The notes beneath the pieces are model-generated. The model was not told where the DNA came from and did not search any database. It worked only from the letters and a program-made list of their open reading frames with translations. A DNA stretch of 53,803 nt from a virus (taxonomy: Duplodnaviria; Caudoviricetes). Shown here piece by piece: positions 12,084 through 48,553 of this stretch; positions within the stretch are counted from its first letter, which is position 1; each line of letters opens with the position of its first letter. The stretch spans positions 1-53,803 of IMG/VR virus record IMGVR_UViG_3300027976_002493, one strand, 5' to 3'. A program made the translations under genes and the position numbers.

Positions 12084-14309
12084 ATGAGAGGATCAAAATT
12101 ACTATCAAACATAAAGTTTTACACTGACTATTCTAAATGGGATGAAAAGCTAGAAAGAAAACAATCCTGGGAAGAGAGGGTAGAAGATGTTATGAGAATG
12201 CATCAGGAAAACCCTAAATTTAAAGAAGCATTCAAAAACCCTTGGTTTGCTGACATGTTTGAAAAAACTAAGGACTTATATAAAAGAAAAATGATATCGG
12301 GCTCGCAAAGAGCTTTCCAATTCAATGAATATCATATAGGAAGACATAATTCTAAGATATACAACTGCACTGTAACGTACTGTGATAGGCCTAGGATGTT
12401 CCAAGAAGCAATGTATCAACTGCTATGCGGGTGTGGGGTTGGAGTGTCATTCTTAAAAAAGTTTACCAACCAACTCCCTAATATTTCTTCTAGAGATAGG
12501 GGGACTAAAACATTTACAATAGCGGATGACATAGAGGGTTGGGCAAATGCTGTAGGTGTATTAATGTCTTCTTATTTTGAAGGGGAAGTCCCCTTCCCTG
12601 AATACCAAAGGTATATAATTAACTTTGATTATTCTCAAATTAGACCAGAAGGTGCTTACATCTCAGGCGGTTTTAAAGCCCCGGGACATACCGGATTAAA
12701 GAGGAGTCTTGAGAAAATAGAAAACTTACTAAACAAAACTTTAAGTAGGGGTCAATTTAAAATAACACCTATCATACCTTATGATATTATCATGCACTGT
12801 GCTGATGCTGTTCTAAGTGGCGGAGTTAGAAGAAGTGCTACTATAGCCTTGTTTGATTTTGATGATGAGGAAATGATGAATGCTAAAGTAGGTAACTGGT
12901 TTAGTGAAAACCCACAGAGAGCAAGGAGTAACAACTCAGCTCTATTAATTAGAAGTCAAATTACTAAAGAACAATTTGATAATTTAATGGAAAGAACTAA
13001 GCAATTCGGTGAGCCGGGTTTTATCTTTTCTGAGAGTGAGGACTTTCTCTACAACCCCTGCGTTGAGATAGGTATGTTAGCTAAACTTAAAAGGCTAGAA
13101 GAGGAAATATCAGGGTGGCAGAGTTGTAATTTATCAGGTGTGATTGGGAAGTATTCTACTTCATTGGAGATATTTGTGGAACAGGCTGAGTGTGCTTCTT
13201 TTATAGGAACACTGCAAGCCTCTTATACTAATTTACGCTACTTGGGAGAAGTATCGGAAGAAATTCATAAAAAAGAGGCCTTAATTGGTGTTTCCATTAC
13301 AGGGTTTATGAATTCTCCTAAAGTACTACTAAACCCCGATTACCTTAGAACTGCTGCTTTAGCAGTTAAAGATGTTAACAGAAAAACAGCATTTATTATA
13401 GGAATAAATGTTGCAGCTAGAACTACTTGTGTAAAGCCATCGGGAAATGAAAGTACAATGTATGAAACTGCTTCCGGTATACATGGAGAACATTCTGAAG
13501 ATTATTTTAGAATAGTTCAATTGAATAAGGAAGATGATATTGCTAAAATGATAGCATCTAAAGTTCCTGATATGATAGAAGAAAGTGTTTGGAGTGCAAA
13601 TAAAACTGATTATGCTATCTTTGTCCCTATTAAAACTAAAAAAGGTTCAATATACAAAAAAGACCTATTAGGTGTAAAACAGCTAGAAATAGTAAAATTA
13701 GTACAGGAGAACTGGGTGGAGGTAGGTACAAATATTGAATTATGTTCCCACCCAAAGTTAAGACATAATGTTTCAAATACTATATCAGTGGATAACTGGG
13801 AACAAGTGGGTGATTTTATTTTTAATAATAAAGAAGTATTCGCAGGTATCTCATTATTATCTCATACGGGGGATAAAGTTTATAATCAAGCTCCATTTAC
13901 AGAGGTAATAGATTCAACAAAAATAGTTGAGAAGTATGGAGATGCCTCCATGTTTGTATCGGGGTTAATAGTTGATGGTTTAGAATTATTTAATAATAAC
14001 CTATGGCAAGCATGTGATTTTATATCCCAAGAAGATAGAAAATTAGAAGGTACCAACCAACAGATATTACTAAAACAAACCTGGATTAGTAGAGCAAAGA
14101 AATTTGCTAAACGTTACTTCAAAGACATTGAGGATTTGATATTCTGTATGAAGGATGTACACCTTTACCATAAATGGGTAAATATTGAACGTGTTCAAAG
14201 AAACCTAGATATTGAACCCTTATTATCTCAAACTAAACCCGAATACACTGCAATTGATACTCTAGGTGCTCAATCTTGTTATGGAGGAGCTTGTGAGATA
14301 GAATTTTAA
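12084..14309 (+). CDS. nrdJ: Class II (adenosylcobalamin-dependent) ribonucleotide reductase, monomeric RTPR-type
   Basis: YNC, GCGVG, GGVRRSA, RARSNNS, NPCVEI (thiyl Cys), CNL, VKPSG, C-terminal CYGGAC; no beta-subunit gene adjacent. Confidence 0.85.
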   Translation: MRGSKLLSNIKFYTDYSKWDEKLERKQSWEERVEDVMRMHQENPKFKEAFKNPWFADMFEKTKDLYKRKMISGSQRAFQFNEYHIGRHNSKIYNCTVTYCDRPRMFQEAMYQLLCGCGVGVSFLKKFTNQLPNISSRDRGTKTFTIADDIEGWANAVGVLMSSYFEGEVPFPEYQRYIINFDYSQIRPEGAYISGGFKAPGHTGLKRSLEKIENLLNKTLSRGQFKITPIIPYDIIMHCADAVLSGGVRRSATIALFDFDDEEMMNAKVGNWFSENPQRARSNNSALLIRSQITKEQFDNLMERTKQFGEPGFIFSESEDFLYNPCVEIGMLAKLKRLEEEISGWQSCNLSGVIGKYSTSLEIFVEQAECASFIGTLQASYTNLRYLGEVSEEIHKKEALIGVSITGFMNSPKVLLNPDYLRTAALAVKDVNRKTAFIIGINVAARTTCVKPSGNESTMYETASGIHGEHSEDYFRIVQLNKEDDIAKMIASKVPDMIEESVWSANKTDYAIFVPIKTKKGSIYKKDLLGVKQLEIVKLVQENWVEVGTNIELCSHPKLRHNVSNTISVDNWEQVGDFIFNNKEVFAGISLLSHTGDKVYNQAPFTEVIDSTKIVEKYGDASMFVSGLIVDGLELFNNNLWQACDFISQEDRKLEGTNQQILLKQTWISRAKKFAKRYFKDIEDLIFCMKDVHLYHKWVNIERVQRNLDIEPLLSQTKPEYTAIDTLGAQSCYGGACEIEF

Positions 14310-18892: not shown

Positions 18893-19810
18893 ATGAGTTT
18901 TAAAGACAATCAAGAAGCATTAATTGCTACAGCCAGTAAACATTTAGGTAAAGTAGGCGGAGCCGGGTATAGTGACCAGTACGACCCTGGGTTACTAGTA
19001 GCTATTCCTAGAAACCTAAACAGAGAAGGTTACGGAATCGAAGAAGATAAACTTCCTTTCGTAGGAAGCGACGTATGGAATGCATACGAAGTATCAGCCA
19101 TCACACTAAAAGGCAGGCCCGTAGTAGGTATGATGAAAATAGTATACTCTTCTAGTTCACCGTTACACGTAGAGTCAAAGTCTATAAAGCTATACCTAAA
19201 CTCCTTTAATATGACAAGGATGGGAGATACTGCTGTTGAATGTATTAGTAAGTTCGAGGAGAGAGTTGTAAGAGACCTATCGATATGTCTTAAGACAGAA
19301 GTAGAAGTGAAGTTCTTCTTTAACGATCTTAACTTTGAAGGAGATTTCGGAAGAGGTTATACAAACCTCGACCGGGTAGTAGACTTAGATAGCGTAGAAT
19401 TTAACGTATTCAAATCAGATGCAAAACAGTTAAAAAGTCTCGATGAAGAAGTCTCAGACAAGGTAATAAAAATACAATCTAATCTCTTAAGATCTAATTG
19501 TAGAGTGACTAATCAGCCAGATTTTGGAGATGTCTACATCCACATGGAAGGAGTAAAAGAGCCGGATTATGCATCAATTGCAAAGTATATAGTATCACAC
19601 CGTCAAGTCTCCCATTTCCATGAGGAGATCGTAGAGATGGTATTCACACACCTTCATAAAGCATATCAACCGGACAAGTTGATGGTATGTGCATTGTATA
19701 CGAGAAGAGGCGGGTTGGATATTAACCCTATAAGAGCTACGCATCAAGATATGATACCAACAGAATTTGTAGGAGTAGAGTTTAGAAACAAAAAGACTCT
19801 TAGACAGTAA
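18893..19810 (+). CDS. queF: NADPH-dependent preQ0 reductase QueF (two-domain type)
   Basis: VESKSIKLYLNSF QueF motif, LRSNCRVTNQPDFG with catalytic Cys, FHEE, YTRRGGLDINP. Confidence 0.95.
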   Translation: MSFKDNQEALIATASKHLGKVGGAGYSDQYDPGLLVAIPRNLNREGYGIEEDKLPFVGSDVWNAYEVSAITLKGRPVVGMMKIVYSSSSPLHVESKSIKLYLNSFNMTRMGDTAVECISKFEERVVRDLSICLKTEVEVKFFFNDLNFEGDFGRGYTNLDRVVDLDSVEFNVFKSDAKQLKSLDEEVSDKVIKIQSNLLRSNCRVTNQPDFGDVYIHMEGVKEPDYASIAKYIVSHRQVSHFHEEIVEMVFTHLHKAYQPDKLMVCALYTRRGGLDINPIRATHQDMIPTEFVGVEFRNKKTLRQ

Positions 19811-21083: not shown

Positions 21084-21992
21084 ATGCAATTAGAAATGAA
21101 TTTTAACAAAGAAAAACACGTAGTACTATCACTTTCAGGTGGTTTGGATTCAAGTACATTATTACTAAGATGCTTGAAAGAGTATGACAGCGTAACTGCT
21201 ATATCATTTGATTATGGTCAAAAACATAGGGTTGAATTAGATAGAGCTCAATCGTTAGTTGATTATATTAACAATGGGGTTGTAGATAACAGAGGTGCTA
21301 ATCCTTACCCTAACATTAAATACAAACAAATTAAATTAGATGGTTTAGCAGAACTACTTAACTCCACATTAGTAACAGGAGGAGAGGATGTACCTGAAGG
21401 ACATTATAAAGGAGATAACATGAAAGCAACAGTTGTGCCAAATAGAAATAAAATATTCTCATCCATAACTCAAGCAATAGCATTATCAGTAGTAGGTAAG
21501 ACAGGTGGAACTTGTGATATCGCTTTAGGTATCCACGCAGGTGACCATGACATATACCCGGACTGTAGGCAAGATTTCAGAGACGCTGATGTGAAAGCAT
21601 TTAGAGTAGGTAATTGGGATTCGGAGAAAGTAGGATTTTACACACCCTATCTTGAGGGAGATAAATTCACAATTTTACAAGATGGAGAAGTGCTATGTAA
21701 GGAATTAGGATTAGATTTTGATGAAGTTTATAAAAGAACAATGACATCTTACAAGCCTATATGCATACCGGAAAAACCCTCGAACTTACTAGATGAATTA
21801 GTTTGGAGAAACAATCACGAATGGTTCTCAGACCATAAATCTGCAAGCTCAGTTGAAAGGATAGAAGCTTTTATAAAACTAGGTAGGAAAGACCCAGCAC
21901 CTTATGCAGATGAATCCGGTGAAGTGGATTGGGAATACGTAGAAGCAGAAACCCGAAAAACAATCAACGATTTCCACGCTAAACAAAATTAG
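21084..21992 (+). CDS. queC: 7-cyano-7-deazaguanine synthase QueC
   Basis: SGGLDS PP-loop, FDYGQKH..E, TVVPNRN, YPDCR. Confidence 0.95.
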   Translation: MQLEMNFNKEKHVVLSLSGGLDSSTLLLRCLKEYDSVTAISFDYGQKHRVELDRAQSLVDYINNGVVDNRGANPYPNIKYKQIKLDGLAELLNSTLVTGGEDVPEGHYKGDNMKATVVPNRNKIFSSITQAIALSVVGKTGGTCDIALGIHAGDHDIYPDCRQDFRDADVKAFRVGNWDSEKVGFYTPYLEGDKFTILQDGEVLCKELGLDFDEVYKRTMTSYKPICIPEKPSNLLDELVWRNNHEWFSDHKSASSVERIEAFIKLGRKDPAPYADESGEVDWEYVEAETRKTINDFHAKQN

Positions 21993-22008: not shown

Positions 22009-22278
22009 ATGAGCGATAGAGAAATAATGAATAGTAAGAGTTATACCTTAGGCGGTAAAGAGGTGAAATCCACAATAAAACGACACACCCGGACCTCTCC
22101 GGGAATTGAACCGGTAGAAGAACAAACTCTACCGAATGCTAGGAAACATCAAATCATATCATTTATAAAATCGGGAATTAGAATTATAGGTTATGGTTTT
22201 ATAGTAACAGACCCGACAGTAGCAATTGTTATTTTAGTGATAAGTGAAGCAGTAGGGGTAATAGAGGAGTTAGTATAA
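22009..22278 (+). CDS. Small membrane protein
   Basis: Hydrophobic C-terminus ending EAVGVIEELV. Confidence 0.65.
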   Translation: MSDREIMNSKSYTLGGKEVKSTIKRHTRTSPGIEPVEEQTLPNARKHQIISFIKSGIRIIGYGFIVTDPTVAIVILVISEAVGVIEELV

Positions 22279-22281
22279 GCT

Positions 22282-22533
22282 ATGAAAAGACTAATATACA
22301 TATCAACTAGTAGCTGTGAACCCTGCAAAGCCTTCGCACCGGTAATGACAAAAGCAGCAGAGTCCGGCATACCGGTAATAAAAGTAAATGCCGACATACA
22401 AAAAACAGTGTTGTCTGAATACCAGGTAAGAAGTGTGCCAACAGTAGTGAAGGTGGACTCATTAGGCACTATGTTGGATAAGTTTGTAGGAGTAAGGACA
22501 CTCCAAGAGGTTATCAACTTCTATAATGCATAA
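22282..22533 (+). CDS. Thioredoxin
   Basis: CEPC active site, VRSVPT cis-Pro motif. Confidence 0.85.
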   Translation: MKRLIYISTSSCEPCKAFAPVMTKAAESGIPVIKVNADIQKTVLSEYQVRSVPTVVKVDSLGTMLDKFVGVRTLQEVINFYNA

Positions 22534-22562: not shown

Positions 22563-22709
22563 ATGGGAGAGGAAGATGATTGGGAAATGTCCGAACCTAA
22601 AGACGGTTTCACAGAAGAAGAAGAGAGGATCGTATATAAGATGATGCAGAATATGCCAGTAGAGGATTTAAAAAAGATAATCAAAAATAACAAAGCAAAG
22701 AAGGTATGA
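22563..22709 (+). CDS. Small hypothetical protein (48 aa, not in ORF track)
   Basis: MGEEDDWEMSEP...; stop overlaps the queE start (ATGA). Confidence 0.5.
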   Translation: MGEEDDWEMSEPKDGFTEEEERIVYKMMQNMPVEDLKKIIKNNKAKKV

Positions 22710-23542
22710 AAATAAATTTAGTAGAGAATGGGATTTTCCCAATTAAAGGACAATTAACAAAAGATTCTACCGGCTATTCCGTACCGGGTACCTTCCAAGG
22801 AGAAGGTAAACTTACAGGAACCCCTTGCCTATTTGTAAGAACCTCAGGATGTAACTTAAGATGTTCTTGGGTTGGTCTAGATGGGAACGGCTCTCCTTGT
22901 GATACACCTTACTCCTCTCATAACCCAGAAAAGAATAAGATGGAGATTGATGACATAGTAAAAACTGTAATTGATAATACTTCAGAACAGAATATTAGGT
23001 ATGTTGTAGTTAGTGGAGGAGAGCCAACAATACAACATAAGGGTTTAGCAGAACTATTGCAAAAATTAAGAGCCCTAGGTTTACATACAACTATAGAAAC
23101 TAATGCTACTATCTATACAGATGAAATAGCTAAACACACTAGTCTAGTTTCAATGTCACCTAAACTCTCAAGTTCAACACCTTGGGTTAAAAATTTAAAA
23201 AATACAGGTATTGAGTATAATTTAAAATGGGCGGATAAGCACGAACTAACTAGGATTAATATAGAAGCAATGCAAAGCTATATTGACGCTAAAAAGATAT
23301 ATGGGAATGATTTTCAACTAAAATTCGTAGTTTTAGGTGATGATGATGTTGTAGAAATTGAAGAAATACTTACACAGCTAACAGGATGGGACCCTTCAGA
23401 CATATGCCTAATGCCAGAAGGTGTTGATGTAGATACACTGAATGAGAGAACTAAATGGGCTAGTGAAGAGGCTCTTAAAAGAGGGTGGAGGTTTACTCCG
23501 AGACTGCATATCATGATGTTCGGTAAAAATCGACTAGTTTAA
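22706..23542 (+). CDS. queE: 7-carboxy-7-deazaguanine synthase QueE (radical SAM)
   Basis: TFQGEG, FVRTSGCNLRC...CDTPYS, SGGEP, IETN, SMSPK, PRLH. Confidence 0.93.
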   Translation: MKINLVENGIFPIKGQLTKDSTGYSVPGTFQGEGKLTGTPCLFVRTSGCNLRCSWVGLDGNGSPCDTPYSSHNPEKNKMEIDDIVKTVIDNTSEQNIRYVVVSGGEPTIQHKGLAELLQKLRALGLHTTIETNATIYTDEIAKHTSLVSMSPKLSSSTPWVKNLKNTGIEYNLKWADKHELTRINIEAMQSYIDAKKIYGNDFQLKFVVLGDDDVVEIEEILTQLTGWDPSDICLMPEGVDVDTLNERTKWASEEALKRGWRFTPRLHIMMFGKNRLV

Positions 23543-23566: not shown

Positions 23567-23722
23567 ATGAGTAAAGCACTTGAATTACTATCAGAGATAA
23601 GGGAAAACATAAACACCTGCTGCGCTATAACAATGGAACCAGAAGAAGTACTAACACTCATAGATGAGCTACAAGCTATACTAGAAACGAAAGAAAATCC
23701 GGAAACAAAATGCAAGAGTTGA
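23567..23722 (+). CDS. Small hypothetical protein (51 aa, not in ORF track)
   Basis: MSKALELLSEIRENINTCCAITM...; fills the gap between queE and the PRTase. Confidence 0.5.
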   Translation: MSKALELLSEIRENINTCCAITMEPEEVLTLIDELQAILETKENPETKCKS

Positions 23723-24240
23723 TTAAGCGAAAGGATATAGACCTTAAAACTAAAATACTCGCTAAACAAATAGCAGACGAACATAGGGGTGATAAAACAC
23801 CAGTCGTGATGGTCGGCCTACTCAACGGATGCTTTATGTTTTACTCAGACCTTGTACGTGCAATGGATATCGATATTGAATGTGACTTCATGAGAGTTAA
23901 GTCCTATGTAAGTAAGCGGAAACAGGGGGATATCCAAATTACGAAAGATTTAGAGACTGCAGTAAAGGGTAAACACATATACCTTGTAGATGATATCTAC
24001 GACACGGGCAATACTATGAAAGCAGTATCAGAGTACCTACAAGTTAAAAAACCAGCATCCATAAACATCGTAACGTTAGTTAAGAGGTTGAAAAGTGAAT
24101 GGGACCCGCTCAACACAGAAACAAGCTCTATTAGAAATTTTACCTGGGGATTTACTATTAAAGATGAGTGGATTGTAGGAATGGGATGTGATGATGAACA
24201 TGGACACAGTCGAAACCTCTCCTCTATATTTTCACTATAA
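23710..24240 (+). CDS. hpt: Purine phosphoribosyltransferase (HPRT family)
   Basis: GLLNGCFMFYSDL, SY loop, PRPP motif YLVDDIYDTGNT, WIVGMGCD...RNL. Confidence 0.88.
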   Translation: MQELIKRKDIDLKTKILAKQIADEHRGDKTPVVMVGLLNGCFMFYSDLVRAMDIDIECDFMRVKSYVSKRKQGDIQITKDLETAVKGKHIYLVDDIYDTGNTMKAVSEYLQVKKPASINIVTLVKRLKSEWDPLNTETSSIRNFTWGFTIKDEWIVGMGCDDEHGHSRNLSSIFSL

Positions 24241-24276: not shown

Positions 24277-24786
24277 ATGATATTAAATAGCAGGCAGATT
24301 ATAGAGAAGGGAATAATTATCCCCTCCGAACATTCAAAAGAAGCTCAAGTAGGTATTGACTTAAGTCTAGGAAAGGTCGAAAAAATTACCGGAGGGTCAG
24401 TAGTTTATAAAGAGACAACAATAATTAACCCAGACTTCTTTATAAATGTAGAGACTTCAAAAGTAGACGGTAGAGACTGCTGGATACTAGAACCAGGAAC
24501 ATATGCAATATCCTTTAACGAAGGGTGTAATATTCCGGAAAACTATACCGGTCTTATACTACATAGAAGCTCTCTATATAGAACAGGTACGCAAATAATA
24601 TCTCCTGTATGGGATCCCGGTTACCGCACAGAGAAAATGGGCACAGTAATGGTGGTAACAGTAAAGCTTATTGTTGAACGAAACGCCCGAGTATGTCAAA
24701 TACTCTTTCATGAAAATTACCCAGTAGATGCACTATACGACGGACAGTTCCAAGGAGGTATAACAGGTTTCCAGAAAACTGAATGA
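24277..24786 (+). CDS. Trimeric dUTPase / dCTP deaminase family protein
   Basis: GIDL, HRSSL.R.G, VWDPGY, RVCQ, YDGQFQ. Confidence 0.85.
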   Translation: MILNSRQIIEKGIIIPSEHSKEAQVGIDLSLGKVEKITGGSVVYKETTIINPDFFINVETSKVDGRDCWILEPGTYAISFNEGCNIPENYTGLILHRSSLYRTGTQIISPVWDPGYRTEKMGTVMVVTVKLIVERNARVCQILFHENYPVDALYDGQFQGGITGFQKTE

Positions 24787-25047: not shown

Positions 25048-27387
25048 ATGGTAAAGGTTATACAAAAAGAATATATTAACGTCAGGACACGAGAGGAACT
25101 GCTAGTACTCTGGAAGGAATTAGAAAGTCATGATAAGATCGCAATAGATACTGAGACTACCTCATTAAACACTCGGAAGGGTGAGATAATAGGTGTTTCC
25201 TTCTCTACAGAAGAAGGTAACGGTTGGTATGTACCTTCTAGGGTATGGAATAAAGAGACGGAGACGTTAGATGAGGTATTTATAGATGGAGTAGGTGTAG
25301 ACAGTATAACGGTTAAGTTACTAAAGACTTTAAAAGGTAAGAAGTTAATCGGACACAATCTTGCATTTGATTGCAAATTCATTATGTATTTCTACGGTGT
25401 TAACTTAATACCGGATATATGGGTAGACACAGCACTACTAGTACACACAGTAAAAGAAGAAGGGGCCTTTGGTTATGGAAATCCTTTCGGGTTGAAATCG
25501 ATAGCAATAATGATTCAAGATGAAATCGGATTAGATATAAAAGAATCAGCAAATCAGGAACAGTTAGAACTTAAAGCCTCCATTAAGGAGAACGGTGGAG
25601 TTACTACAAGAGTAAACTATGAAATCTACAAAGCAGATATAGGTGTATTATCAAAATACGCAGCAGCGGATACTGATCTAACTCTAAGAGTATGTAACCA
25701 CTTCCTAAAAGTACTAAAAGAGGAGAGGTTAGAGAAGTTTTTCTTTGAGGATGAGGTAATGCCCCTGTATAGAGAAGTAACTATACCTATGGAGATAGAA
25801 GGTATAGCATTAGATATACCACTTATAGAACAAACCAGGGAAGATATAACTAAAGATCAAACTAAATACAGAAGTTCAGTAATGACAGAACTACTAAAGC
25901 TAAGCGCAGTTAAGGAGTGGGTAATGGACTCAGCCTTAAAAGCTTTCCCACCCTCACCGAGAGGTAAATGGGCATCAACTTTAGTAGAACTGTACGGACT
26001 TCCAATGCCTAAAACTGCTAGAGGTTATTCGCTCAAACAATCTAACGTTGAAGCATTAGAAGAGCACCCGGTCCGGGAATACTTACTGAGTGGAGATTTA
26101 GAGCATTTAGAAGAGGAAGTCGTACTTAGAGTCTCGATGAAACTTTGGAAGGAGTCTAACGACGGGGTGTTGATTAATATACAATCTAAAAAGCAATTAG
26201 CAGAAATAACGTTCAACTACTTAAAAGAGAAGCCTCTGTCAAGAACTGCAAAAGGACAAGCACAGTTTGACGATAATACAATTCAGGCATTATCCGACAA
26301 GTATGAATGGTTACAGAATCTACGACTATACAATAAACTACTCAAGATTAAATCAACCTATATAGATAGATTTTACGCTGCTGCAGAAGATGGGAGGTTC
26401 TACCCATACTTTAAACAACACGGAACTGTGTCCGGAAGGTATGGATCTGACCTACAACAACTACCTAAACCGAAAGAAGAGGGAGAGGCAGATCCAATAA
26501 TCGTAAAGTATACAAATACAATTAGATCTTTCTTTATTTCAGATCCCGGCACTATCTTCATCGATAGCGACTACACTTCCTTAGAGCCCCATCTATTCGC
26601 ATCAGTATCAGATGATAAAGCACTGCAGGAGATTTTTAATAAGGAGCATGACTTCTACTCTACCGTAGCAATACGAACCGAGAAGTTAAACGAACAGACA
26701 GAAAAGTACCCTAATGGAGTATCTGCCGATACCAAAGCACCTAACTACCTTAAGAACTTAGATGCACCTAAGAGAAACACAGCTAAAGGGTATTCATTAG
26801 GTATAGCATACGGAATGTCTGCATATGCCTTAGCAATGTCCCTTGGAGTATCTCAGGCAGAGGGTAAGAGGTTACATCAAGGTTATCTTGATGGATTCCC
26901 CGGAGTTGCTAAATGGATCAATGATTCGAGAGATTCCTTCAAAAGAGACGGTTACATCAGGAACGAAGTAGGGCGTATCAGACATTTAGAGAAAGGTAAA
27001 GCAGTTTACGATATATTCGGAGAGTCTATTATGGATTGGAAGGTACGAGGGGACTTAGGTAGAGACTACGGAAAAGAACAAGTACTACAATGGTACAGGG
27101 ATTATAAGAACGCTTTAAACAATTCGCTTAACTTCCAGTTGCAGAGTCTCGCAGCATCTGTAGTAAATAGAGCAGCTCTAGTAATTAATAGAAGGTTTAA
27201 AGAGTTAGGAATAGACGGAGTAGTAGTAGCACAGATACACGATCAGTTGATAATGCGAGTACCGGAGGATAAAGCAGAAGAATGCTTACCGTGGATCCAG
27301 GACCTAATGGAGAATACTACGCAGATGAAAGGTGTAACATTAAAAGCACCTCCAGCCATAGGAAGGAATTTTTCTGAAGCCCATTAG
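25048..27387 (+). CDS. polA: Family A DNA polymerase with 3'-5' exonuclease domain
   Basis: ExoI IDTET, ExoII HNLAFD, ExoIII YAAAD; GTVSGR; motif A DYTSLE; motif B RNTAKGYSLGIAYG; motif C QIHD. Confidence 0.95.
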   Translation: MVKVIQKEYINVRTREELLVLWKELESHDKIAIDTETTSLNTRKGEIIGVSFSTEEGNGWYVPSRVWNKETETLDEVFIDGVGVDSITVKLLKTLKGKKLIGHNLAFDCKFIMYFYGVNLIPDIWVDTALLVHTVKEEGAFGYGNPFGLKSIAIMIQDEIGLDIKESANQEQLELKASIKENGGVTTRVNYEIYKADIGVLSKYAAADTDLTLRVCNHFLKVLKEERLEKFFFEDEVMPLYREVTIPMEIEGIALDIPLIEQTREDITKDQTKYRSSVMTELLKLSAVKEWVMDSALKAFPPSPRGKWASTLVELYGLPMPKTARGYSLKQSNVEALEEHPVREYLLSGDLEHLEEEVVLRVSMKLWKESNDGVLINIQSKKQLAEITFNYLKEKPLSRTAKGQAQFDDNTIQALSDKYEWLQNLRLYNKLLKIKSTYIDRFYAAAEDGRFYPYFKQHGTVSGRYGSDLQQLPKPKEEGEADPIIVKYTNTIRSFFISDPGTIFIDSDYTSLEPHLFASVSDDKALQEIFNKEHDFYSTVAIRTEKLNEQTEKYPNGVSADTKAPNYLKNLDAPKRNTAKGYSLGIAYGMSAYALAMSLGVSQAEGKRLHQGYLDGFPGVAKWINDSRDSFKRDGYIRNEVGRIRHLEKGKAVYDIFGESIMDWKVRGDLGRDYGKEQVLQWYRDYKNALNNSLNFQLQSLAASVVNRAALVINRRFKELGIDGVVVAQIHDQLIMRVPEDKAEECLPWIQDLMENTTQMKGVTLKAPPAIGRNFSEAH

Positions 27388-27455: not shown

Positions 27456-27740
27456 ATGAATAAGATAGTAGATACTAATATTAAGGTTTTAACAGACCCT
27501 AGGTTACATCCGTATAGCTTGCAGATGGATCAATACTGTTATGCAGTGTTTAAAGAGGTGAAAGCTAGAGGGACAGGTAAGAGCCGGAAAGTTTCCCTAG
27601 GGTATACTACGGATATAGAAAAATGCTTTCAGATGATAAAACAAGACGCAATCAGAGATAAAGACTATAACAACTTACATGAATATATAGACGAAATGAC
27701 AATAATAATAGACAACTTAAATTCAATACAATTAACATGA
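27456..27740 (+). CDS. Hypothetical protein
   Basis: ORF behind TTG(27419)-N20-TATATT promoter, coupled to groES. Confidence 0.65.
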   Translation: MNKIVDTNIKVLTDPRLHPYSLQMDQYCYAVFKEVKARGTGKSRKVSLGYTTDIEKCFQMIKQDAIRDKDYNNLHEYIDEMTIIIDNLNSIQLT

Positions 27741-28036
27741 GATTAAAAGCAATTTACAATGCAGTTATCGTTAAACCTATAGAGATAGGTGATGAGTACC
27801 ACGGAAACATTATCATACCAGACTTAGGCAGCGAAAAAAATAAGATGGGAGAAGTAACAAGTGTAGGAGATGGGCATAATATGCCAGGTGTAGGTTTTAT
27901 ACCTACCTTCCTAAAAGTAGGAGATCGAGTAGTACTACCTGCAATGGGATTCACTAGGTTTGAATTCAAAGGTGAAGAGTACTTCATAGGAGCAGAAAAC
28001 CAAATACTAGCCCTCTTAGAGGATCAAGAAGACTAA
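27737..28036 (+). CDS. groES: Co-chaperonin GroES
   Basis: GNIIIPD mobile loop, G.V.SVG.G, LKVGDRV, E..ILA. Confidence 0.92.
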   Translation: MRLKAIYNAVIVKPIEIGDEYHGNIIIPDLGSEKNKMGEVTSVGDGHNMPGVGFIPTFLKVGDRVVLPAMGFTRFEFKGEEYFIGAENQILALLEDQED

Positions 28037-28039
28037 ATC

Positions 28040-29653
28040 ATGAGCAAACACATAGAATATTCAAACGAAGCTAGAAAGAGACTCCTCGACGGTATCGACT
28101 TATTAGCAAATGCAGTAACTGCTACCCTAGGACCAAACGGCCGAAACGTAGTGTATAGAGACGAAACCGGTGAAGTGAGGTCTACCAAAGACGGAGTGAC
28201 AGTAGCAAAAGTTATATCCTTCAGCGACCCTATTAAATCTATAGCAATAGATATGATAAAACAAGCAGCAATTAACACCGCTAATACTGCAGGAGATGGA
28301 ACCACTACTTCAACACTACTAGCTCAAGTAATAACCACAAGAGGACTAAACGCTTTAGATGCAAAGGAAAATGCAGTACAGGTTAAGAGAGAGGTAGATG
28401 AAGCAGTAAAACAAGTTATAAAATACATTAAGGATAATATCGTTGAAGAGATAACATCAGAAGAGCAGTTAAAGCAGGTTGCTACAGTGTCTGCCAACAA
28501 CGACGAGATGGTAGGTAACCTTATTACATCTGCTTTAGAAGCAGTAGGGAGAGACGGTATTGTAACTATTGAAGAATCTAGAACAGGAGAAACTTATCTC
28601 GAAACTGTAGAAGGTATTCAATTTGATAGAGGTTACAAATCACCGTACTTTGTTAGTGATAACGCAACAATGTCTGCAATACTAGATTCACCGTACGTCT
28701 TAATATACGACGGAAAGCTGTCTCAAGCTAAAGACCTACTCCCGGTACTAGAATATGTATCATCAGAGAATAAGTCACTATTAATAGTATGTGAGGATAT
28801 CGACAATGAAGCATTAGCAACACTAATCGTAAATAAGATGAGAGGAACACTTAAAGTAGTAGCTGTTAAAGCTCCTGATTTCGGAGACCGTAGAAAACTT
28901 ATTATGGAGGATATAGCTATACTAACAGGAGGGCAGGTGATAAGCCCAGATAAAGCAATGAAGTTATCTAGATTGGATAAGACGTGGTTTGGCGAAGCTA
29001 GAAAAGCAAACGTAATGAAAGAGAATACTATTATTATTGACGGTAAAGGGGATAGCGAAGCTATAGGTAAGAGGATAGAGGAGCTAAAAGCACAGATAAA
29101 CAATGCTAAGTCACCTTTTGAAATTGAGAAGCTACAGGAGAGATTAGGTAAATTCACAGGTGGAGTATCTATTATTCACGTAGGTGGAAATTCTGAAATA
29201 GAAATGAAAGAAGTTAAGGATAGAGTTGAAGACTCTCTACATGCTACTAGGGCAGCGATCGAACAAGGTATAGTACCTGGTGGAGGAGCAGCATTATTAC
29301 ATGCAAGTAGGAATATTACTGAGACTACTATCGGGGCAGGTATAGTTAAACAAGCATGTGCAGCACCATTTATTACGATACTGTCCAATGCAGGATATGA
29401 ACCGAGCGAGATTGAAGTGATAATAGACGATGTACTACTCGCAGGAACCTGGAGTGGTTACCATGTATATGATAGAAAAGTTGTTGATATGAAACTAGCA
29501 GGTATTATTGACCCTTTTAAAGTAACAAGGACAGCACTAGAGAATGCAGCATCAGTAGCAGGTACAATAATGCTAACTGAAGCAGTAGTAGCAGATGAAG
29601 TAGTTACTGTAACACCTTCTATGGAACCCGTAGAGCAACTGATGTTAGGGTAG
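28040..29653 (+). CDS. groEL: Chaperonin GroEL
   Basis: TLGPNGRNV, TKDGVTVA, AGDGTTT, FDRGY.SPYF, KAP.FGDRRK, GIVPGGG, GIIDP.KV. Confidence 0.97.
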   Translation: MSKHIEYSNEARKRLLDGIDLLANAVTATLGPNGRNVVYRDETGEVRSTKDGVTVAKVISFSDPIKSIAIDMIKQAAINTANTAGDGTTTSTLLAQVITTRGLNALDAKENAVQVKREVDEAVKQVIKYIKDNIVEEITSEEQLKQVATVSANNDEMVGNLITSALEAVGRDGIVTIEESRTGETYLETVEGIQFDRGYKSPYFVSDNATMSAILDSPYVLIYDGKLSQAKDLLPVLEYVSSENKSLLIVCEDIDNEALATLIVNKMRGTLKVVAVKAPDFGDRRKLIMEDIAILTGGQVISPDKAMKLSRLDKTWFGEARKANVMKENTIIIDGKGDSEAIGKRIEELKAQINNAKSPFEIEKLQERLGKFTGGVSIIHVGGNSEIEMKEVKDRVEDSLHATRAAIEQGIVPGGGAALLHASRNITETTIGAGIVKQACAAPFITILSNAGYEPSEIEVIIDDVLLAGTWSGYHVYDRKVVDMKLAGIIDPFKVTRTALENAASVAGTIMLTEAVVADEVVTVTPSMEPVEQLMLG

Positions 29654-31866: not shown

Positions 31867-33309
31867 ATGGAAAAACAAAGTTATATTAAAAAAGAGGATA
31901 GGAAGAAGATACTCCTACTCTGTGATGACATACGCGCTCATTCCGGGGTAGCTCACATGGGTAGAGAGATAGTAACAGAGACCTGTCATCGGTATAATTG
32001 GGTAAATGTTGGAGGTTCGGTAAAACATCCGGAGGCAGGTCAGAGGTTCGATGTATCCGGTGATACTAATACTAGGGCAGGTATAGATGATTCGTCTGTC
32101 TTTATTTATCCGATAACGGGGTACGGGTCACCGGAATTTCTTCGTGCTTTACTGGTCAATGAGAAGCCGGATGCAATATTCATCATTACTGATCCTAGGT
32201 ATTGGATGTGGTTGTTTGACATGGAGGCAGAGATTAGAAAGCATGTTCCTATTATATACTTAAATATATGGGATAACTACCCTGCACCTCTTTACAATAA
32301 GACCTTCTATGAAAGTTGTGATGCACTTCTAGGCATTTCTAAACAGACTGTTAACATTAACAAGTTAGTCTTAGCAGACAAAGGGGATAACAAAGTCATT
32401 GAATACATTCCACACGGTGTTAGTGAACAGACATTCTATCCATTAACTGTAAGTGAGAAACAACAGGAGGATTATACTTCTTTTGTCACTAAGTTAAAGC
32501 AGGGTAAGGATATAGATTTTGTAGTACTTTTCAATTCGCGTAACATTAGACGTAAGCAGATACCGGATACTATATTAGCTTTTAAACATTTCGTGGACCG
32601 TCTACCAGAACCGGCTAAGAAAAAAGCCATGTTACTATTACATACCCAGGAGGTAGATGCTAACGGTACTGATTTACCGGTTGTTATTGACTTATTAACT
32701 CCTCAATCACAGGGTTATAATGTACACTTTACACCTGGGCCTCTAGAGGTTAAGGAGATGAATTACCTTTATAATCTTGCAGATACTACTATACTGCTAT
32801 CCTCTAACGAAGGTTGGGGATTGGCATTGACTGAATCTATGTTAACCGGTACACCTTTTATTGCTAATGTAACAGGAGGTATGCAGGATCAGATGAGATT
32901 TATTAAGGATGGTAAGTGGATGGAGTTAGATGCTGAGTTTCCTTCTAACCATAACAAGACTGTTACGGAGTGTGGTAGGTGGGCATTTCCGGTATATCCA
33001 ACCTCTATATCACTGGTAGGTTCTCCTACTACTCCTTATATATGGGATGATCGTTGCGATCCAATGCATGCTGCAGATAGGTTAAATGAGATTTACAACC
33101 TATCGATTGAAGAGAGAGTATCAAGGGGAATGGAAGGCTGTGAATGGGCCACTGGTCCGGAGGCTGGTTTTACTTCAACTACTATGGGTTGGAGAGTAGT
33201 TGAGGGGGTAGATAGGCTGTTTCGAGAATGGAAACCTAGAGAGAATTTTGAATTGATCCTGGCCGGAGAGGTAGAGGACGGAGCTGTTAAGCATAAACTA
33301 ATTTATTAA
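31867..33309 (+). CDS. GT-B (GT4-like) glycosyltransferase
   Basis: SGVA, YIPHG, RNIRRKQ, SSNEGWGLALTES (EX7E); promoter TTG 31824-N20-TATATT. Confidence 0.88.
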   Translation: MEKQSYIKKEDRKKILLLCDDIRAHSGVAHMGREIVTETCHRYNWVNVGGSVKHPEAGQRFDVSGDTNTRAGIDDSSVFIYPITGYGSPEFLRALLVNEKPDAIFIITDPRYWMWLFDMEAEIRKHVPIIYLNIWDNYPAPLYNKTFYESCDALLGISKQTVNINKLVLADKGDNKVIEYIPHGVSEQTFYPLTVSEKQQEDYTSFVTKLKQGKDIDFVVLFNSRNIRRKQIPDTILAFKHFVDRLPEPAKKKAMLLLHTQEVDANGTDLPVVIDLLTPQSQGYNVHFTPGPLEVKEMNYLYNLADTTILLSSNEGWGLALTESMLTGTPFIANVTGGMQDQMRFIKDGKWMELDAEFPSNHNKTVTECGRWAFPVYPTSISLVGSPTTPYIWDDRCDPMHAADRLNEIYNLSIEERVSRGMEGCEWATGPEAGFTSTTMGWRVVEGVDRLFREWKPRENFELILAGEVEDGAVKHKLIY

Positions 33310-33315
33310 AGTATA

Positions 33316-34620
33316 ATGAAAAAATCAAGACCCACGTTTTACATAAGTTGCCCGGTTTCGACCTACAGCGGATATGGAGCTAGATCAAGAGACCTAATAA
33401 GTGCTCTAATTGACATCGATAAGTATGATATCAAGATTGTACCTCAAAAGTGGGGCTCTACCCCTTGGGGATTTATAGAAGCTAACCCGGAATGGATGCC
33501 TCTTAAAGATTTGTTCGTAAGCCAGATCACGGAGAAGCCGGATATATGGTGCCAAGTTACTATACCAAGTGAATTTAATCCCATCGGAAAATTTAATATT
33601 GGGTTTACTGCCGGTATAGAGTCTACTGTATGCTCACCTGATTGGGTAGAGGGTTTGAATAGAATGGATGTAAACTTTGTATCCTCTCAACACTCAAAAG
33701 ATATATTTAAAAGTTTAAGGTTTGAAAAGAAGCATAATCAAACCCAACAAGTCGTAGAGGTAGTAGAAGTTAAAAAGCCTGTTGAAGTGCTTTTCGAAGG
33801 GGTAGACACCGATACGTACAGGATGAAGAGCGATGTGCCTGACGACTTCCTAAACCTAGGAGACATTAAGGAGGACTTCGTCTTCCTACACTGCGGTATG
33901 TGGTTAGAAGGTATAATGGGGGAAGATAGAAAGAATATAGGTCTAACTGTAAAAGCTTTCTATGAAACCTTTAAAAATAAATCAAAGAAACCAGCGTTAC
34001 TATTAAAGGTCTCTGCAGGCAGTAGCTCTTATATGAGTAGGGATAAGGTGTTAGCTAAGATAGCAGCGGTTAAGAAGACAGTTAAGTCAAAGAACTTACC
34101 TAATGTCTACCTATTAAATGGAGACCTTACCGATGAGGAAATGAATAACTTATATAACCACCCTAAAGTAAAAGCTATGATTAGTTTAACTAAGGGAGAA
34201 GGGTTCGGTAGACCGTTACTAGAGTTTACTACATCACAGAAACCACTTATAACAACTAACTGGTCCGGACAACTAGATTATCTTAACCCAGAGTTTACTA
34301 CATTACTTAAAGGAGAGTTAACCCCTATACACCCTTCAGCAGCTAATCAATGGTTACTAAAAGAAGGTCAATGGTTTAGTGTTGACTTCATGCAAGCCGG
34401 GGGATACTTCAGAGATGTCTTCGAAAATTATAAAAAGTATAAAACAATGGCTAAGCGACAATCTTACATATCAACAAATCAATTCAGTTGGAATAAGATG
34501 AAAGAGTTATTAGAGCAGAGATTAGAAGAACTTATACCGGAGTTCTCTCAAAAGGTAGAATTAAAGCTACCGACACTTAAGATGCCTAAGCTAGAATTAC
34601 CGAAATTAAAGAAAATATGA
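33316..34620 (+). CDS. GT-B (GT4-like) glycosyltransferase
   Basis: SGYG, EGVD, DRKN, TKGEGFGRPLLE (EX7E). Confidence 0.88.
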   Translation: MKKSRPTFYISCPVSTYSGYGARSRDLISALIDIDKYDIKIVPQKWGSTPWGFIEANPEWMPLKDLFVSQITEKPDIWCQVTIPSEFNPIGKFNIGFTAGIESTVCSPDWVEGLNRMDVNFVSSQHSKDIFKSLRFEKKHNQTQQVVEVVEVKKPVEVLFEGVDTDTYRMKSDVPDDFLNLGDIKEDFVFLHCGMWLEGIMGEDRKNIGLTVKAFYETFKNKSKKPALLLKVSAGSSSYMSRDKVLAKIAAVKKTVKSKNLPNVYLLNGDLTDEEMNNLYNHPKVKAMISLTKGEGFGRPLLEFTTSQKPLITTNWSGQLDYLNPEFTTLLKGELTPIHPSAANQWLLKEGQWFSVDFMQAGGYFRDVFENYKKYKTMAKRQSYISTNQFSWNKMKELLEQRLEELIPEFSQKVELKLPTLKMPKLELPKLKKI

Positions 34621-35102
34621 TAATAGACGATAAAGATTCACTTGGAATATGCACCCGGTGTAAAGGAGATGCCTGCTACACTCAACGAGTCACAGCAGAT
34701 GTAGTTATTAGACAGTGTCTGAGCTGCGGATTTCAAACCACTTCTATAATGATAGTAGGGAATGAATTCTACGATCTACAAATGGAATCCTTACCTGAAC
34801 TATATAAAGACTTAATGTGGACAGATCCTGAAACAAGGGAGATATGGATGCCACAAACGGTAAATCTACCTCAAAAAGGTATGGTTTTCGCAAACGGACC
34901 TAGCAAAGACAACTGGAAATGGTCAGCAGTTAAGGCTGTACCGGTTACTGAAGAGGATAAAAAGAAATACCCTATCCCCGGAAAGAAAGATCAATACTAT
35001 GAATTTAGAATGGATATGACGACACGTAAGGATTTTGAAGAAAAGGATTTTATTGAAGGCTTAGACCATATTGGAATATTTCAGCAAGCAGTAGTTGCCT
35101 AA
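34617..35102 (+). CDS. Hypothetical protein with N-terminal zinc ribbon
   Basis: CTRC...CLSCG. Confidence 0.65.
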   Translation: MIIDDKDSLGICTRCKGDACYTQRVTADVVIRQCLSCGFQTTSIMIVGNEFYDLQMESLPELYKDLMWTDPETREIWMPQTVNLPQKGMVFANGPSKDNWKWSAVKAVPVTEEDKKKYPIPGKKDQYYEFRMDMTTRKDFEEKDFIEGLDHIGIFQQAVVA

Positions 35103-35129
35103 ACGAGATAAAGTTCATATATTATAGTT

Positions 35130-35783
35130 ATGGAAATAAGTTATGCTATCACAGTAAAGGATGAGATTGAGGAAATAAGCAACCTTATACCTTTCCTGCT
35201 TAAACATAAACAAGCTGGGGATGAAGTGGTTGTTCTCTACGATAATATGAATGGATCGCCTGAAGTAGAGTGGTTTTTAAGAACTTCTTCAATTAACAAC
35301 CCTGGACTTAGGTGGCACAATTACCCGTTTGACGGTCATTTTGATAGATTTAAAAACCACCTTACGGCTTTATGCAAAGGAGACTTCGTTATAAATATTG
35401 ATGCAGATGAAATACCCACAGAGGTATTTATGGAGAATATAAACAAGATACTGGAAAGCAATAATGTAGATATGATAAGAGTTCCTAGGATCAACACGGT
35501 CAAAGGTCTAACTGAGGAACATATCCAAAAATGGGGTTGGTCTGTTAACGAGAGGGGATGGGTAAACTTCCCCGATTTACAGAGTCGCATATACGCTAAT
35601 AACGGAAAGATAAGGTGGAAGAATAAAGTACATGAGGTTCTAGAAGGTTACTTGCAGGAAAGTACACTCCCTCTCACAGAGGAATACGCCTTTATACATA
35701 ATAAGACTATAGGTAGACAAGAGAAGCAGAATAGATTTTACGCTAAGATTGAAACCAATGGTAGAGTGAAGTACAAAGTATGA
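35130..35783 (+). CDS. GT-A (GT2) glycosyltransferase
   Basis: ISYAIT..DE, NIDADE (DXD), PD.Q.R, VHE; promoter TTG 35095-N20-TATATT. Confidence 0.88.
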   Translation: MEISYAITVKDEIEEISNLIPFLLKHKQAGDEVVVLYDNMNGSPEVEWFLRTSSINNPGLRWHNYPFDGHFDRFKNHLTALCKGDFVINIDADEIPTEVFMENINKILESNNVDMIRVPRINTVKGLTEEHIQKWGWSVNERGWVNFPDLQSRIYANNGKIRWKNKVHEVLEGYLQESTLPLTEEYAFIHNKTIGRQEKQNRFYAKIETNGRVKYKV

Positions 35784-36562
35784 TACTAACAGTAATAATT
35801 CCTACATATAAAGAACCAGAATACCTAGACCTATGCTTAGAATCAGCTATAAAAGGTCAAGTGAACAAGAATGAAATTATAGTTGTAGTAGATGGTTTTT
35901 ACGAATTAAATAAACCCATTCTAGACAAGTATAAAGACAATATACAAGTATTGAATCTTGAAGCAAACCAAGGACTATCAGTAGCAACCAATTGGGGAGT
36001 GTATAATGCAACATCAGACTACATTTTAGTTGTGAATGATGATAATGTATTCCCTTCAAAATGGGACCACCACTTAACTCCTCACCTAAGAAAAGGAAGT
36101 GTTGTTACCCCTAACGAAATGGAACCCGGTCCTTCTATGTTTAAACAGAAACATATTAAAAATTTAGGACAGCACCCTAGAGAATTTAGTTTAGAGTCCT
36201 TTTGGAAATATGAAGAATCCATCCAAACCACATCCCCTGACTTAACAGGTTCTACTTTGCCTTTTGCTATGTACAAAGCTGATTATTTAGCTGTTGGAGG
36301 ATGGGATATTATGTACCCTTCCCCTCACGTAGTAGATTGGGATTTCTTTTTAAAATGTGAATACTTCGGGATGGAGATGGTTCGCATCTATAAACACTTT
36401 TACCATTTCTGTGGAGCTGCCACCCGTCAAACACTAGAGCAAAGTAATGAATCATCTAGAAAAGAAACATTAGCACATGAATTTTTTGCAGGAAAGTGGG
36501 GACAGTATGCTGAACATAATACTATTAGTAATTCAAAGATGATAAAAATACTTAAAAATTAA
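35780..36562 (+). CDS. GT-A (GT2) glycosyltransferase
   Basis: VIIPTY, VVVDG, NQG, VNDD, VGGWD, DWD. Confidence 0.9.
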   Translation: MILTVIIPTYKEPEYLDLCLESAIKGQVNKNEIIVVVDGFYELNKPILDKYKDNIQVLNLEANQGLSVATNWGVYNATSDYILVVNDDNVFPSKWDHHLTPHLRKGSVVTPNEMEPGPSMFKQKHIKNLGQHPREFSLESFWKYEESIQTTSPDLTGSTLPFAMYKADYLAVGGWDIMYPSPHVVDWDFFLKCEYFGMEMVRIYKHFYHFCGAATRQTLEQSNESSRKETLAHEFFAGKWGQYAEHNTISNSKMIKILKN

Positions 36563-36567
36563 TAACC

Positions 36568-37206
36568 ATGGCTAACGGAATCTATAAAATAACTGAAGAA
36601 TTTGAAGGGGAATTATCTAAATATACAGGAGCTCCTTATGTTATAACAGTGGATAATATGAGTAATGCTTTGTTCTTAGCTTTAATGTATGAGAATATAA
36701 AAAACCAGGAGGTTACAATCCCCAACAGGACATATCCAAGTGTACCTTGTGAAATCATTCATGCAGGAGGAAAGGTTAATTTCGAAAAAGTAAGAGGTAG
36801 TACGTTGACAGGGGCTTACCAACTTAAACCAACTAACGTATATGACTCTGCTTTGAGATTCACAGCGGATATGTACATACCTAAGACGCACATGTGTATA
36901 TCGTTTACTGGGCCGTATAAGCATTTTAAATTATCAAAAGGTGGAGCGATACTGACCGATAACCACGAAGCATACCTATGGTTTAAAAGAGCTAGATACT
37001 CAGGTCGTAGGGAGTGTTCATACCACGATGATAATTTAGATATGTTAGGTTGGAACTTTTACATGATGCCTGAGTTAGCAGCTAGAGGCTTACTACTAAT
37101 GGGACAGTTCTACGATACAAACGGACATAAGAAGAGTAACCCCGACCTAACATTACCATACCCAGACCTGTCTAAATTTAACGTCTATAGTAAAGCAAAC
37201 AGATGA
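36568..37206 (+). CDS. DegT/DnrJ/EryC1/StrS-family PLP sugar aminotransferase (short form)
   Basis: FE..L..Y.G, ALFLAL, P..TY.SV, DSA, SF...K (PLP Lys), GGAILT, GWNFYM. Confidence 0.8.
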   Translation: MANGIYKITEEFEGELSKYTGAPYVITVDNMSNALFLALMYENIKNQEVTIPNRTYPSVPCEIIHAGGKVNFEKVRGSTLTGAYQLKPTNVYDSALRFTADMYIPKTHMCISFTGPYKHFKLSKGGAILTDNHEAYLWFKRARYSGRRECSYHDDNLDMLGWNFYMMPELAARGLLLMGQFYDTNGHKKSNPDLTLPYPDLSKFNVYSKANR

Positions 37207-48487: not shown

Positions 48488-48517
48488 AAAGAGCTGCTCG
48501 AAAGAGTGGCTCTTTTT
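48488..48517 (+). terminator. Intrinsic terminator with GAAA tetraloop
   Basis: aaagagctgctc-gaaa-gagtggctcttt plus T-run, immediately followed by promoter TTG 48520-N20-TATCTTT. Confidence 0.8.
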
Positions 48518-48553
48518 AGTTGCTTAAGTAGTATATCTTACTTATCTTTAATT

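Follow-up and report, generated by a model that had tools for sequence, protein, structure and literature searches.

The metagenomic virus record IMGVR_UViG_3300027976_002493 of IMG/VR, a stretch of 53,803 nucleotides estimated to be 33% complete and analysed here over its whole 53.8-kb length (hereafter the window), carries a gene for a phosphoribosyltransferase (PRTase) of the hypoxanthine phosphoribosyltransferase (HPRT) family among que and dpd genes of 7-deazaguanine modification. In the known phages CP220, phiST and immuto, a 7-deazaguanine takes the place of every guanine, and the question addressed here is how phages of these types reach, and pay for, 100% replacement. The window is a fragment from a virus that is uncultured and related to Flavobacterium phage immuto. 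A nucleotide-level comparison with 50,697 phage records found relatives only in the Flavobacterium 'immuto' phages, with a DNA polymerase (PolA) of ~65% identity. All genes of the window lie on the + strand. An initial annotation, made from the DNA letters alone, had placed the HPRT-family gene in a queC-thioredoxin-queE-PRTase run ahead of genes for a dUTPase and PolA, an arrangement borne out by the open reading frames (ORFs), the Pfam matches and the neighbouring genes.

23710-24240, + strand: HPRT-family PRTase (P0001), 176 amino acids (aa), ATG start, of a phage-specific subfamily; marker residues DD 94-95, D98, R126, W154, D161 and R168

The protein matches Pfam PF00156 (Pribosyltran; E = 4.2e-22, 78.6 bits) and, with the motif VDDIYDTGNT for binding of phosphoribosyl pyrophosphate (PRPP) at residues 93-102, contains a type I PRTase domain. 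Its top NCBIfam match is TIGR01203 (HGPRTase) at 144.3 bits, below the 150-bit equivalog cut-off; the homologue in one relative, G001, scores 142.4 bits against the same profile. The best solved relatives are bacterial HPRTs, 3ohp ranking first (E = 5e-27). An AlphaFold model built from 35 sequences (predicted local distance difference test score, pLDDT, 71.8) has the HPRT fold, its closest match being E. coli HPRT 5knr (template modelling score, TM, 0.74) and its top Foldseek matches all being HPRT/HGPRT (TM 0.70-0.77). Bacterial Hpt (TIGR01203; E. coli structures 1g9s, 1g9t and 5knr) has the same fold as P0001, at ~33-37% identity, and also its PRPP motif, its Ser-Tyr loop, its motif Asp and its Asp and Arg for the binding of Mg and pyrophosphate (PPi). 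In the clade of P0001, by contrast, the conserved Lys is replaced by Arg, the stacking Phe by Trp and ED by DD, and Asn stands where the bacterial LL[RK]G motif has Arg or Lys; unlike bacterial Hpt, P0001 is viral and embedded in que/dpd clusters. By eye, a small ORF of ~49 aa (window 23568-23717) fills the spacer between the QueE and PRTase genes and overlaps the PRTase start codon in another frame.

Base pocket of the phage PRTase

A PRTase-centred search of IMG/VR returned 108 or more relatives; 80 loci, at 56-89% identity, were retained. A set of 60 distinct clade members, drawn from the 74 loci with complete ORFs together with the window, G001 and G002, was aligned with Hpt of Salmonella, Acinetobacter and S. 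aureus. Within the clade, the Ser-Tyr of the loop, D94-D95, I96, D98, G100, T102 and R168 never vary, and D161 is present in 58 of the 60 members. D98, found in all 60 and in 143 of 150 representatives from a wider survey of the base pocket (the best 150 of 8304), aligns with the motif Asp of bacterial Hpt (human D137), which we take to be the contact to purine N7; PDB titles among the structure matches speak of an 'invariant aspartic acid in HPRTs'. N7 is absent from a 7-substituted 7-deazapurine. At position 126, where canonical Hpt has a Lys (human K165) that presumably reads the 6-oxo group (O6) of the purine, all 60 relatives carry Arg; Lys occupies this position in 107 of the 150 representatives and in 78 of 78 cellular relatives. 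At position 154, Trp replaces in all 60 the Phe that, from work on human HGPRT, we assume to stack on the purine, and the position accordingly stays aromatic. The initial annotation had singled out the loop WIVGMGCD (residues 154-161; FVVGYG[IL]D in bacterial Hpt) as atypical, which holds for W154 throughout the clade, whereas M158 (15/60) and C160 (12/60) are not family features. An 8-residue insertion in P0001 (approximately residues 136-143) is likewise missing from most relatives. A relative of only 39% identity (L170) retains N39, DD, R126 and W154.

Among the 150 representatives, the residues at positions 126 and 154 are K/F in 90, R/W in 25, R/F in 8 and K/W in 7. Que genes were then counted within 8 kb of 77 diverse viral HPRT-like loci, some of them on contigs already sampled, with the following result:

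R/W pocket: 36 loci with que genes, 7 without
K/W pocket: 11 with, 3 without
R/F pocket: 8 with, 2 without
R/Y pocket: 1 with, 0 without
K/F pocket: 2 with, 7 without

The split between non-K/F and K/F pockets (56/12 versus 2/7) has a Fisher p of 5e-4, a value that ignores relatedness and truncated contigs. In a FastTree phylogeny of 271 sequences, the window falls in a clade of 121 (support 0.92) comprising 96 R/W, 15 K/W, 6 R/F and 4 K/F members. A scan of one genome per species across 185,579 species, from which the best 80 loci were taken, yielded 78 K/F housekeeping genes, so that R/W occurs in 0 of 78 cellular relatives; the only two R/W matches lie in QueD-QueE-PRT-FolE-MazG contexts on contigs of metagenome-assembled genomes. 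As judged from the aligned sequences, the Arg126/Trp154 signature marks a que-associated HPRT subfamily. The contigs L281 and L282, assigned to Lacinutrix sp. and Microbacteriaceae bins respectively, hold the only close matches of the PRTase in the genome collection; they carry phage-like que clusters and are probably mis-binned phage DNA; the Lacinutrix label of L281 agrees with a Flavobacteriaceae host.

Association with que and dpd genes

The window encodes the following genes of the modification pathway and of nucleotide metabolism, including the PurN-like gene, the P-loop kinase and the class II ribonucleotide reductase (RNR) that the initial annotation had named:

12084-14309, + strand: class II (B12) RNR-like protein (TIGR02505, E = 3.6e-38, under the cut-off; phrog_367, E = 2e-78)
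18893-19810, + strand: bimodular QueF, preQ0 to preQ1 (PF14819, PF14489)
21084-21992, + strand: QueC, preQ0 synthase (PF06508, E = 3.4e-34)
22706-23542, + strand: QueE, radical-SAM synthase of 7-carboxy-7-deazaguanine (CDG), directly 5' of the PRTase gene
42548-43018, + strand: QueD, PTPS family (PF01242, E = 6.7e-16)
46114-46821, + strand: FolE, GTP cyclohydrolase I, the GTP-consuming entry step (PF01227, E = 3.4e-42)
47058-47873, + strand: DpdA3, guanine/7-deazaguanine transglycosylase with the fold of tRNA-guanine transglycosylase (TGT), 59% identical to immuto DpdA3 (E = 4e-105)
48506-49306, + strand: P-loop kinase (AAA_28), with 51% identity to immuto gp68 and 31% to CP220 gp057
51549-52094, + strand: DpdN-like formyltransferase of the PurN family (PF00551, E = 2.4e-15), 51% identical to immuto DpdN

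The DpdA3 frame has no Pfam match. It matches phrog_19058 (E = 1.4e-35), and its model (pLDDT 94) is closest in the PDB to tRNA-guanine transglycosylases (E = 6.6e-9, TM 0.57-0.70), than which it is ~100 residues shorter. The initial annotation had proposed a nucleotide pathway 'rather than base swapping on DNA', but in doing so had overlooked this candidate for base exchange. In immuto, the DNA of which was measured, fdPreQ1 replaces all G, and the final bases differ among phages, being dDG in phiST, dADG in CP220 and fdPreQ1 in immuto, as given in the main text of PMC10516641; the model published there is post-replicative exchange on DNA, based on homology, in which the activity of DpdA3 is presumed. 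The window has each of the named components of the immuto system, with DpdA3, DpdN, the kinase and the synteny of PolA and GroES/EL. The two differ in their PRTases, that of immuto (gp60, 131 aa) being Gpt-like, or xanthine phosphoribosyltransferase (XPRT)-like, and that of the window HPRT-like, and in gene order, a dUTPase-like gene and PolA following the PRTase gene of the window where the immuto-type order has FolE next.

The pair of DpdA3 and P-loop kinase is kept from Flavobacterium-type phages to Campylobacter phage CP220 (L100 11995-13355; L001 15916-17920), usually in the order DpdA3-DpdN-Kin with a gene for a MazG-type pyrophosphohydrolase just upstream; in phiST the order is MazG, an AAA_18 kinase-like protein and DpdA3. 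The published model assigns no role to the kinase and MazG genes adjacent to DpdA3.

Co-occurrence of the PRTase with que/dpd genes, which the initial annotation had suggested as a check, is strongly positive. A que or dpdA3 gene lies within 10 kb of the PRTase gene in 76 of the 80 PRTase-centred loci, usually in the order QueE-PRT-FolE. Of the 62 loci that extend 3 kb or more upstream, 58 have QueE on that side, and of the 63 that extend 3 kb or more downstream, 51 have FolE there; where FolE is downstream, the median distance from the PRTase stop to the FolE start is 80 nt, and 51 of the 63 have a distance of at most 200 nt. Nearby que or dpdA3 genes are missing from four loci: two (G001 and G002) have FolE-QueD-QueE elsewhere on the record, and the remaining two are fragments, 13% and 22% complete. 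Because of this co-occurrence, we consider the PRTase to be functionally tied to the que/dpd genes. In a large protein collection, 1004 PRTase clusters were found at E <= 1e-5.

The same pattern is seen from the side of DpdA3, for which IMG/VR contained at least 580 matching stretches; 80 loci were retained. Their usual order is QueD-QueE-[PRT]-FolE-MazG-DpdA3-DpdN-Kin-QueF-PolA, with DpdN in 72, Kin in 67 and MazG in 52 of the 80. Among the 53 loci with QueE, FolE and DpdA3 in sequence, a PRTase lies between QueE and FolE in 42, elsewhere in 2, and is absent from 9. Across the 80 loci, the PRTase is of the HPRT type in 9 and of the Gpt/XPRT type in 41, and since both types are found between QueE and FolE, two families occupy one slot in sister phages. 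A staphylococcal-nuclease-like gene (PF00565) recurs inside the cluster, at L013 9647-9997 and in several DpdA3 loci, where it separates QueE from PRT or Kin from QueF; 15 of the 80 DpdA3 loci have it.

The PRTase of phiST is of the Gpt type (142 aa, 30% identical to the immuto PRTase), as are those of the CP220-group phages and of cyanophage BUCT-ZZ01. With the phiST protein as a tblastn query, matches were found in 34 of the 50,697 phage records, 24 of which are DpdA3 phages (15 Campylobacter phages of the CP220 group, 5 Cellulophaga and 4 Flavobacterium phages of the immuto type); the others are 2 Brevundimonas phages, 1 cyanophage, 2 faecal contigs and 5 Vibrio phages. The PF00156 search of CP220 was a false negative, its gene being found by this tblastn query. 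The Brevundimonas phage gene directly follows FolE, the cyanophage order is QueE-PRT-x-QueD-FolE, and the CP220 gene is two genes away from a radical-SAM gene. The motif Asp and both Trp residues are kept in 40 of 40 Gpt-type sequences. For the HPRT type, no close match was found in cultured phages, all 18 matches there being at most 37% identical and host-derived in appearance. A 6-oxopurine PRTase has, then, been recruited to deazaguanine clusters at least twice, from different families. The five Vibrio phage matches are to a short segment inside folE: in some Queuovirinae Vibrio phages, FolE is 300 aa long (L106 5821-6723, phage 033B), with an N-terminal extension in which a stretch of 46-55 aa resembles the C-terminal part of the phiST PRTase (36-40% identity, E ~1e-3) and which may be the remnant of a PRT-FolE fusion.

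The PRTase can also be missing. G006 (94% complete) and G009 (100%, with terminal repeats) encode QueE, FolE, DpdA3, DpdN, Kin, QueF and QueC, G006 being near the window (QueE 68%, FolE 73% and PolA 59% identical; the window QueE is 86% identical to that of L003/L065). No PRTase was found in either genome with PF00156 at E <= 0.1 or with a Gpt-type protein query, nor with HPRT and Gpt profiles under hmmsearch --max, where the lowest E was 0.02; G006 was searched up to its final 571 bases. The Gpt-type genes of phiST, L176 and CP220, which served as positive controls, were still picked up by the HPRT-type profile. The slot between QueE and FolE in G006 contains just ORFs of 71, 80 and 96 aa, none with a family match. 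Since two near-complete relatives have the full pathway without it, the PRTase is accessory to the modification module.

G001 (173 kb, 100% complete, with PRT and FolE-QueD-QueE) was considered as a DpdA-less phage and rejected. DpdA3 was not found in it by tblastn, by phrog_19058 or by a DpdA3 hidden Markov model; its relative G002, however, contains a TGT-like frame of 431 aa (PF01702, E = 8.6e-5), and G001 carries a copy that is 92% identical. These belong to a subgroup of PolB phages with RNR-FolE-QueD-QueE, an HPRT-type PRT, no QueC and a TGT-like protein of ~420 aa instead of DpdA3 (G001 115754-117004; G002 ~65982-67270; ~5.5 kb downstream of PRT in L076/L078). This protein may represent an additional DpdA subfamily, with CDG or a CDG derivative as the inserted base.

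Proposed guanine recycling and alternative routes

The complete-replacement deazaguanine clusters are almost always accompanied by a 6-oxopurine PRTase. P0001 is, as its residues suggest, probably an active 6-oxopurine PRTase, and it is an accessory, dispensable member of a DpdA3-type modification module. Its likeliest role, to which we give about even odds, is recycling, from DpdA3-displaced guanine through GMP and GTP to FolE, and not the making of the modified nucleotide. DpdA3 would exchange guanine for a deazaguanine base, freeing one guanine per exchange; the PRTase would join the freed guanine to PRPP to give GMP; and host kinases would raise GMP to GTP, from which FolE would start the next deazaguanine base. 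The findings point to a loop of this kind. In a genome with all of its G replaced, such a loop would cut the guanine, and hence purine, spent on the modification by half and would remove a competing product of the exchange. We infer both that guanine is the substrate and that the loop closes.

Recycling is favoured because the window and all the relatives that were examined in depth encode a TGT-fold, DpdA-type base-exchange enzyme, because the PRTase is tightly coupled to FolE, because two families that have guanine as a common substrate replace each other, because the Asp that we take to contact N7 is retained in both the HPRT and the Gpt type, and because the gene can be lost. Return of excised guanine to GTP for FolE had been listed in the initial annotation as an alternative; given DpdA3, the FolE coupling and the retained D98, it fits best. 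Moreover, the final bases of phiST, CP220 and immuto differ, yet guanine is a purine common to all.

Several observations nevertheless weigh against recycling. CDG is likewise common to the three phages, so a shared purine does not single out guanine. The changes at R126 and W154 would not obviously be needed for ordinary guanine salvage; the non-canonical pockets go with que genes and the K/F pocket does not, the cellular relatives being all K/F. The PRTase gene adjoins QueE in the window, in 58 of 62 relatives and in BUCT-ZZ01, and is near a radical-SAM gene in CP220. MazG, the kinase and the PurN-family DpdN, conserved around DpdA3, hint at nucleotide chemistry. Finally, there is a precedent in TubE, a CDG-specific PRTase from a FolE/QueD/QueE cluster, which joins CDG to PRPP (PMC6112128). 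These points would suit a pre-replicative route in which the phage PRTase, in the manner of TubE, phosphoribosylates a 7-deazaguanine base (CDG, preQ0 or preQ1), DpdN tailors the ribonucleotide, the kinase phosphorylates it, RNR reduces it and the phage polymerase incorporates it. The invariance of R126/W154 in the clade, their association with que genes among viral loci and their retention at 39% identity also speak for this route, as does the fact that PRTases accompany lineages with all G replaced, and a modified-dGTP route was proposed earlier for Campylobacter phages (Hutinet 2019, PMC6884629), first by Crippen et al. 2019 according to PMC6884629 and PMC10516641. We nonetheless regard it as unlikely. 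It would leave the DpdA-type gene of the window and of every relative examined in depth without a role, the retained D98 would face the 7-substituent and repel a carboxylate, a change of substrate would be needed in two separate PRTase families, two near-complete phages have the pathway without a PRTase, and Arg and Trp, bulkier than Lys and Phe, are not an obvious means of admitting a larger base. Of the nucleotide-pool route of the initial annotation, there remain the que/dpd co-occurrence and the TubE precedent, set against the presence of a DpdA-type enzyme, the retained Asp and the PRTase-less relatives. The likeness to TubE (tubercidin) and ToyH (toyocamycin) of Streptomyces, in which a purine-type PF00156 PRTase stands beside FolE, QueD and QueE as here, lies in gene context; those clusters contain no nucleic-acid insertion enzyme (bioRxiv 10.64898/2026.04.15.718813), whereas DpdA3 or the 420-aa TGT-like gene accompanies the PRTase here, and the scan of 185,579 species for P0001 relatives returned no Streptomyces locus and none of the biosynthetic-gene-cluster type. 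The R/W pocket allows both readings: Arg126 could contact the 7-substituent or, alternatively, could recognise guanine by its O6 and N7 and thereby bar the deazaguanines abundant in the infected cell.

Complete replacement of G in DpdA3 phages could also be pre-replicative in a broader sense, carried out on mononucleotides, a possibility that we hold tentatively and that, over its two versions taken jointly, is somewhat unlikely. One version follows the gene order FolE-MazG-DpdA3-DpdN-Kin: MazG would convert dGTP to dGMP, the short DpdA3, with ~100 residues of TGT missing, would exchange the base on dGMP, DpdN would formylate it, the kinase would begin the rise to the triphosphate for the phage polymerase, and the R/W-type PRTase would bring the released guanine back to GTP, the substrate of FolE. 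In the second version, that of the initial annotation, the PRTase would make the deazaguanine ribonucleotide as TubE does. In either, the R/W pocket would be a specificity switch that excludes 7-deazaguanines or admits them. Pre-replicative base replacement is known from the hydroxymethyl-dC of T4 (dCTPase, dCMP hydroxymethylase and dNMP kinase) and from the Z genome (PurZ/MazZ/DatZ). The likeness to these systems lies in the MazG-type pyrophosphohydrolase, base-changing enzyme and P-loop kinase found side by side in relatives of the window; the difference is that action on mononucleotides is here only a candidate, the model in the main text of PMC10516641 being exchange on DNA. The isoelectric point (pI) does not discriminate a DNA from a nucleotide substrate (median pI 5.2 for 34 DpdA3 and 5.06 for one Vibrio phage DpdA). 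The choice between pre- and post-replicative modification is reduced to a few simple enzyme assays. If the PRTase accepts deazaguanines, it would be a useful catalyst for deazapurine nucleotides.

Two further explanations detach the protein from the modification. Plain auxiliary salvage of hypoxanthine and guanine from degraded host nucleic acid would account for the sequence and fold of an ordinary HPRT, for its location in a replication and nucleotide region with RNR, a dUTPase-like protein and a polymerase, and for its dispensability in relatives. We regard it as distinctly improbable, since que or dpdA3 lies within 10 kb in 76 of 80 relatives, the QueE-FolE slot is conserved even when the PRTase type switches, 24 of 34 Gpt-type phage records are DpdA3 phages and 5 more matches are inside folE, and cultured phages have no close HPRT-type match. 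A non-catalytic or regulatory protein, such as an HPRT-derived binder of PRPP or (p)ppGpp, might be suspected from the score just below the HGPRTase equivalog cut-off and from N39 in place of the LLRG-motif Arg, but is exceedingly improbable given that the recognisable catalytic and PRPP/PPi-binding positions are invariant over a large, diverged clade.

Neither the enzyme family nor the modification system is new in itself. New relative to the texts searched are the constant pairing of a PRTase with complete-replacement clusters, its double recruitment and the R/W subfamily. The term 'phosphoribosyl' is absent from the main text of PMC10516641 (Cui et al. 2023), the supplementary tables of which may list the PRTase, and from the searched text of Hutinet 2019 (PMC6884629); literature searches, with supplements and Crippen et al. 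2019 outside their scope, returned no paper tying a PRTase to DpdA in phages.

Other genes of the window

The remaining features around the PRTase gene are as follows:

22009-22278, + strand: 89-aa ORF inside the que run, no Pfam match, present in 52 of 80 PRT loci
22282-22533, + strand: thioredoxin, present in 54 of 80 PRT loci, between QueC and QueD/QueE
24277-24786, + strand: protein of the dCTP-deaminase/dUTPase superfamily (PF22769, E = 2.6e-18), directly 3' of the PRTase gene
25048-27387, + strand: family A DNA polymerase PolA, with a 3'-5' exonuclease domain

The 89-aa ORF and thioredoxin (window 22009-22533) may provide reducing power for QueE or RNR. The superfamily protein at 24277-24786 scores below the cut-offs for both dUTPase and dCTP deaminase (NF002598, 89.6 bits against a cut-off of 130 bits); a similar gene recurs between QueC and QueD in other DpdA3 phages (L173 14537-15031). 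PolA is followed by GroES and GroEL (window 27737-29653), which are syntenic in immuto and most relatives, GroES being present in 48 of 80 PRT loci. Farther downstream, window 31867-39378 encodes two GT1 and two GT2 glycosyltransferases, a PglD-like acetyltransferase and a short piece of a DegT-family aminotransferase (212 aa, covering profile positions 24-97 of 360), a run syntenic with immuto gp90-gp100.

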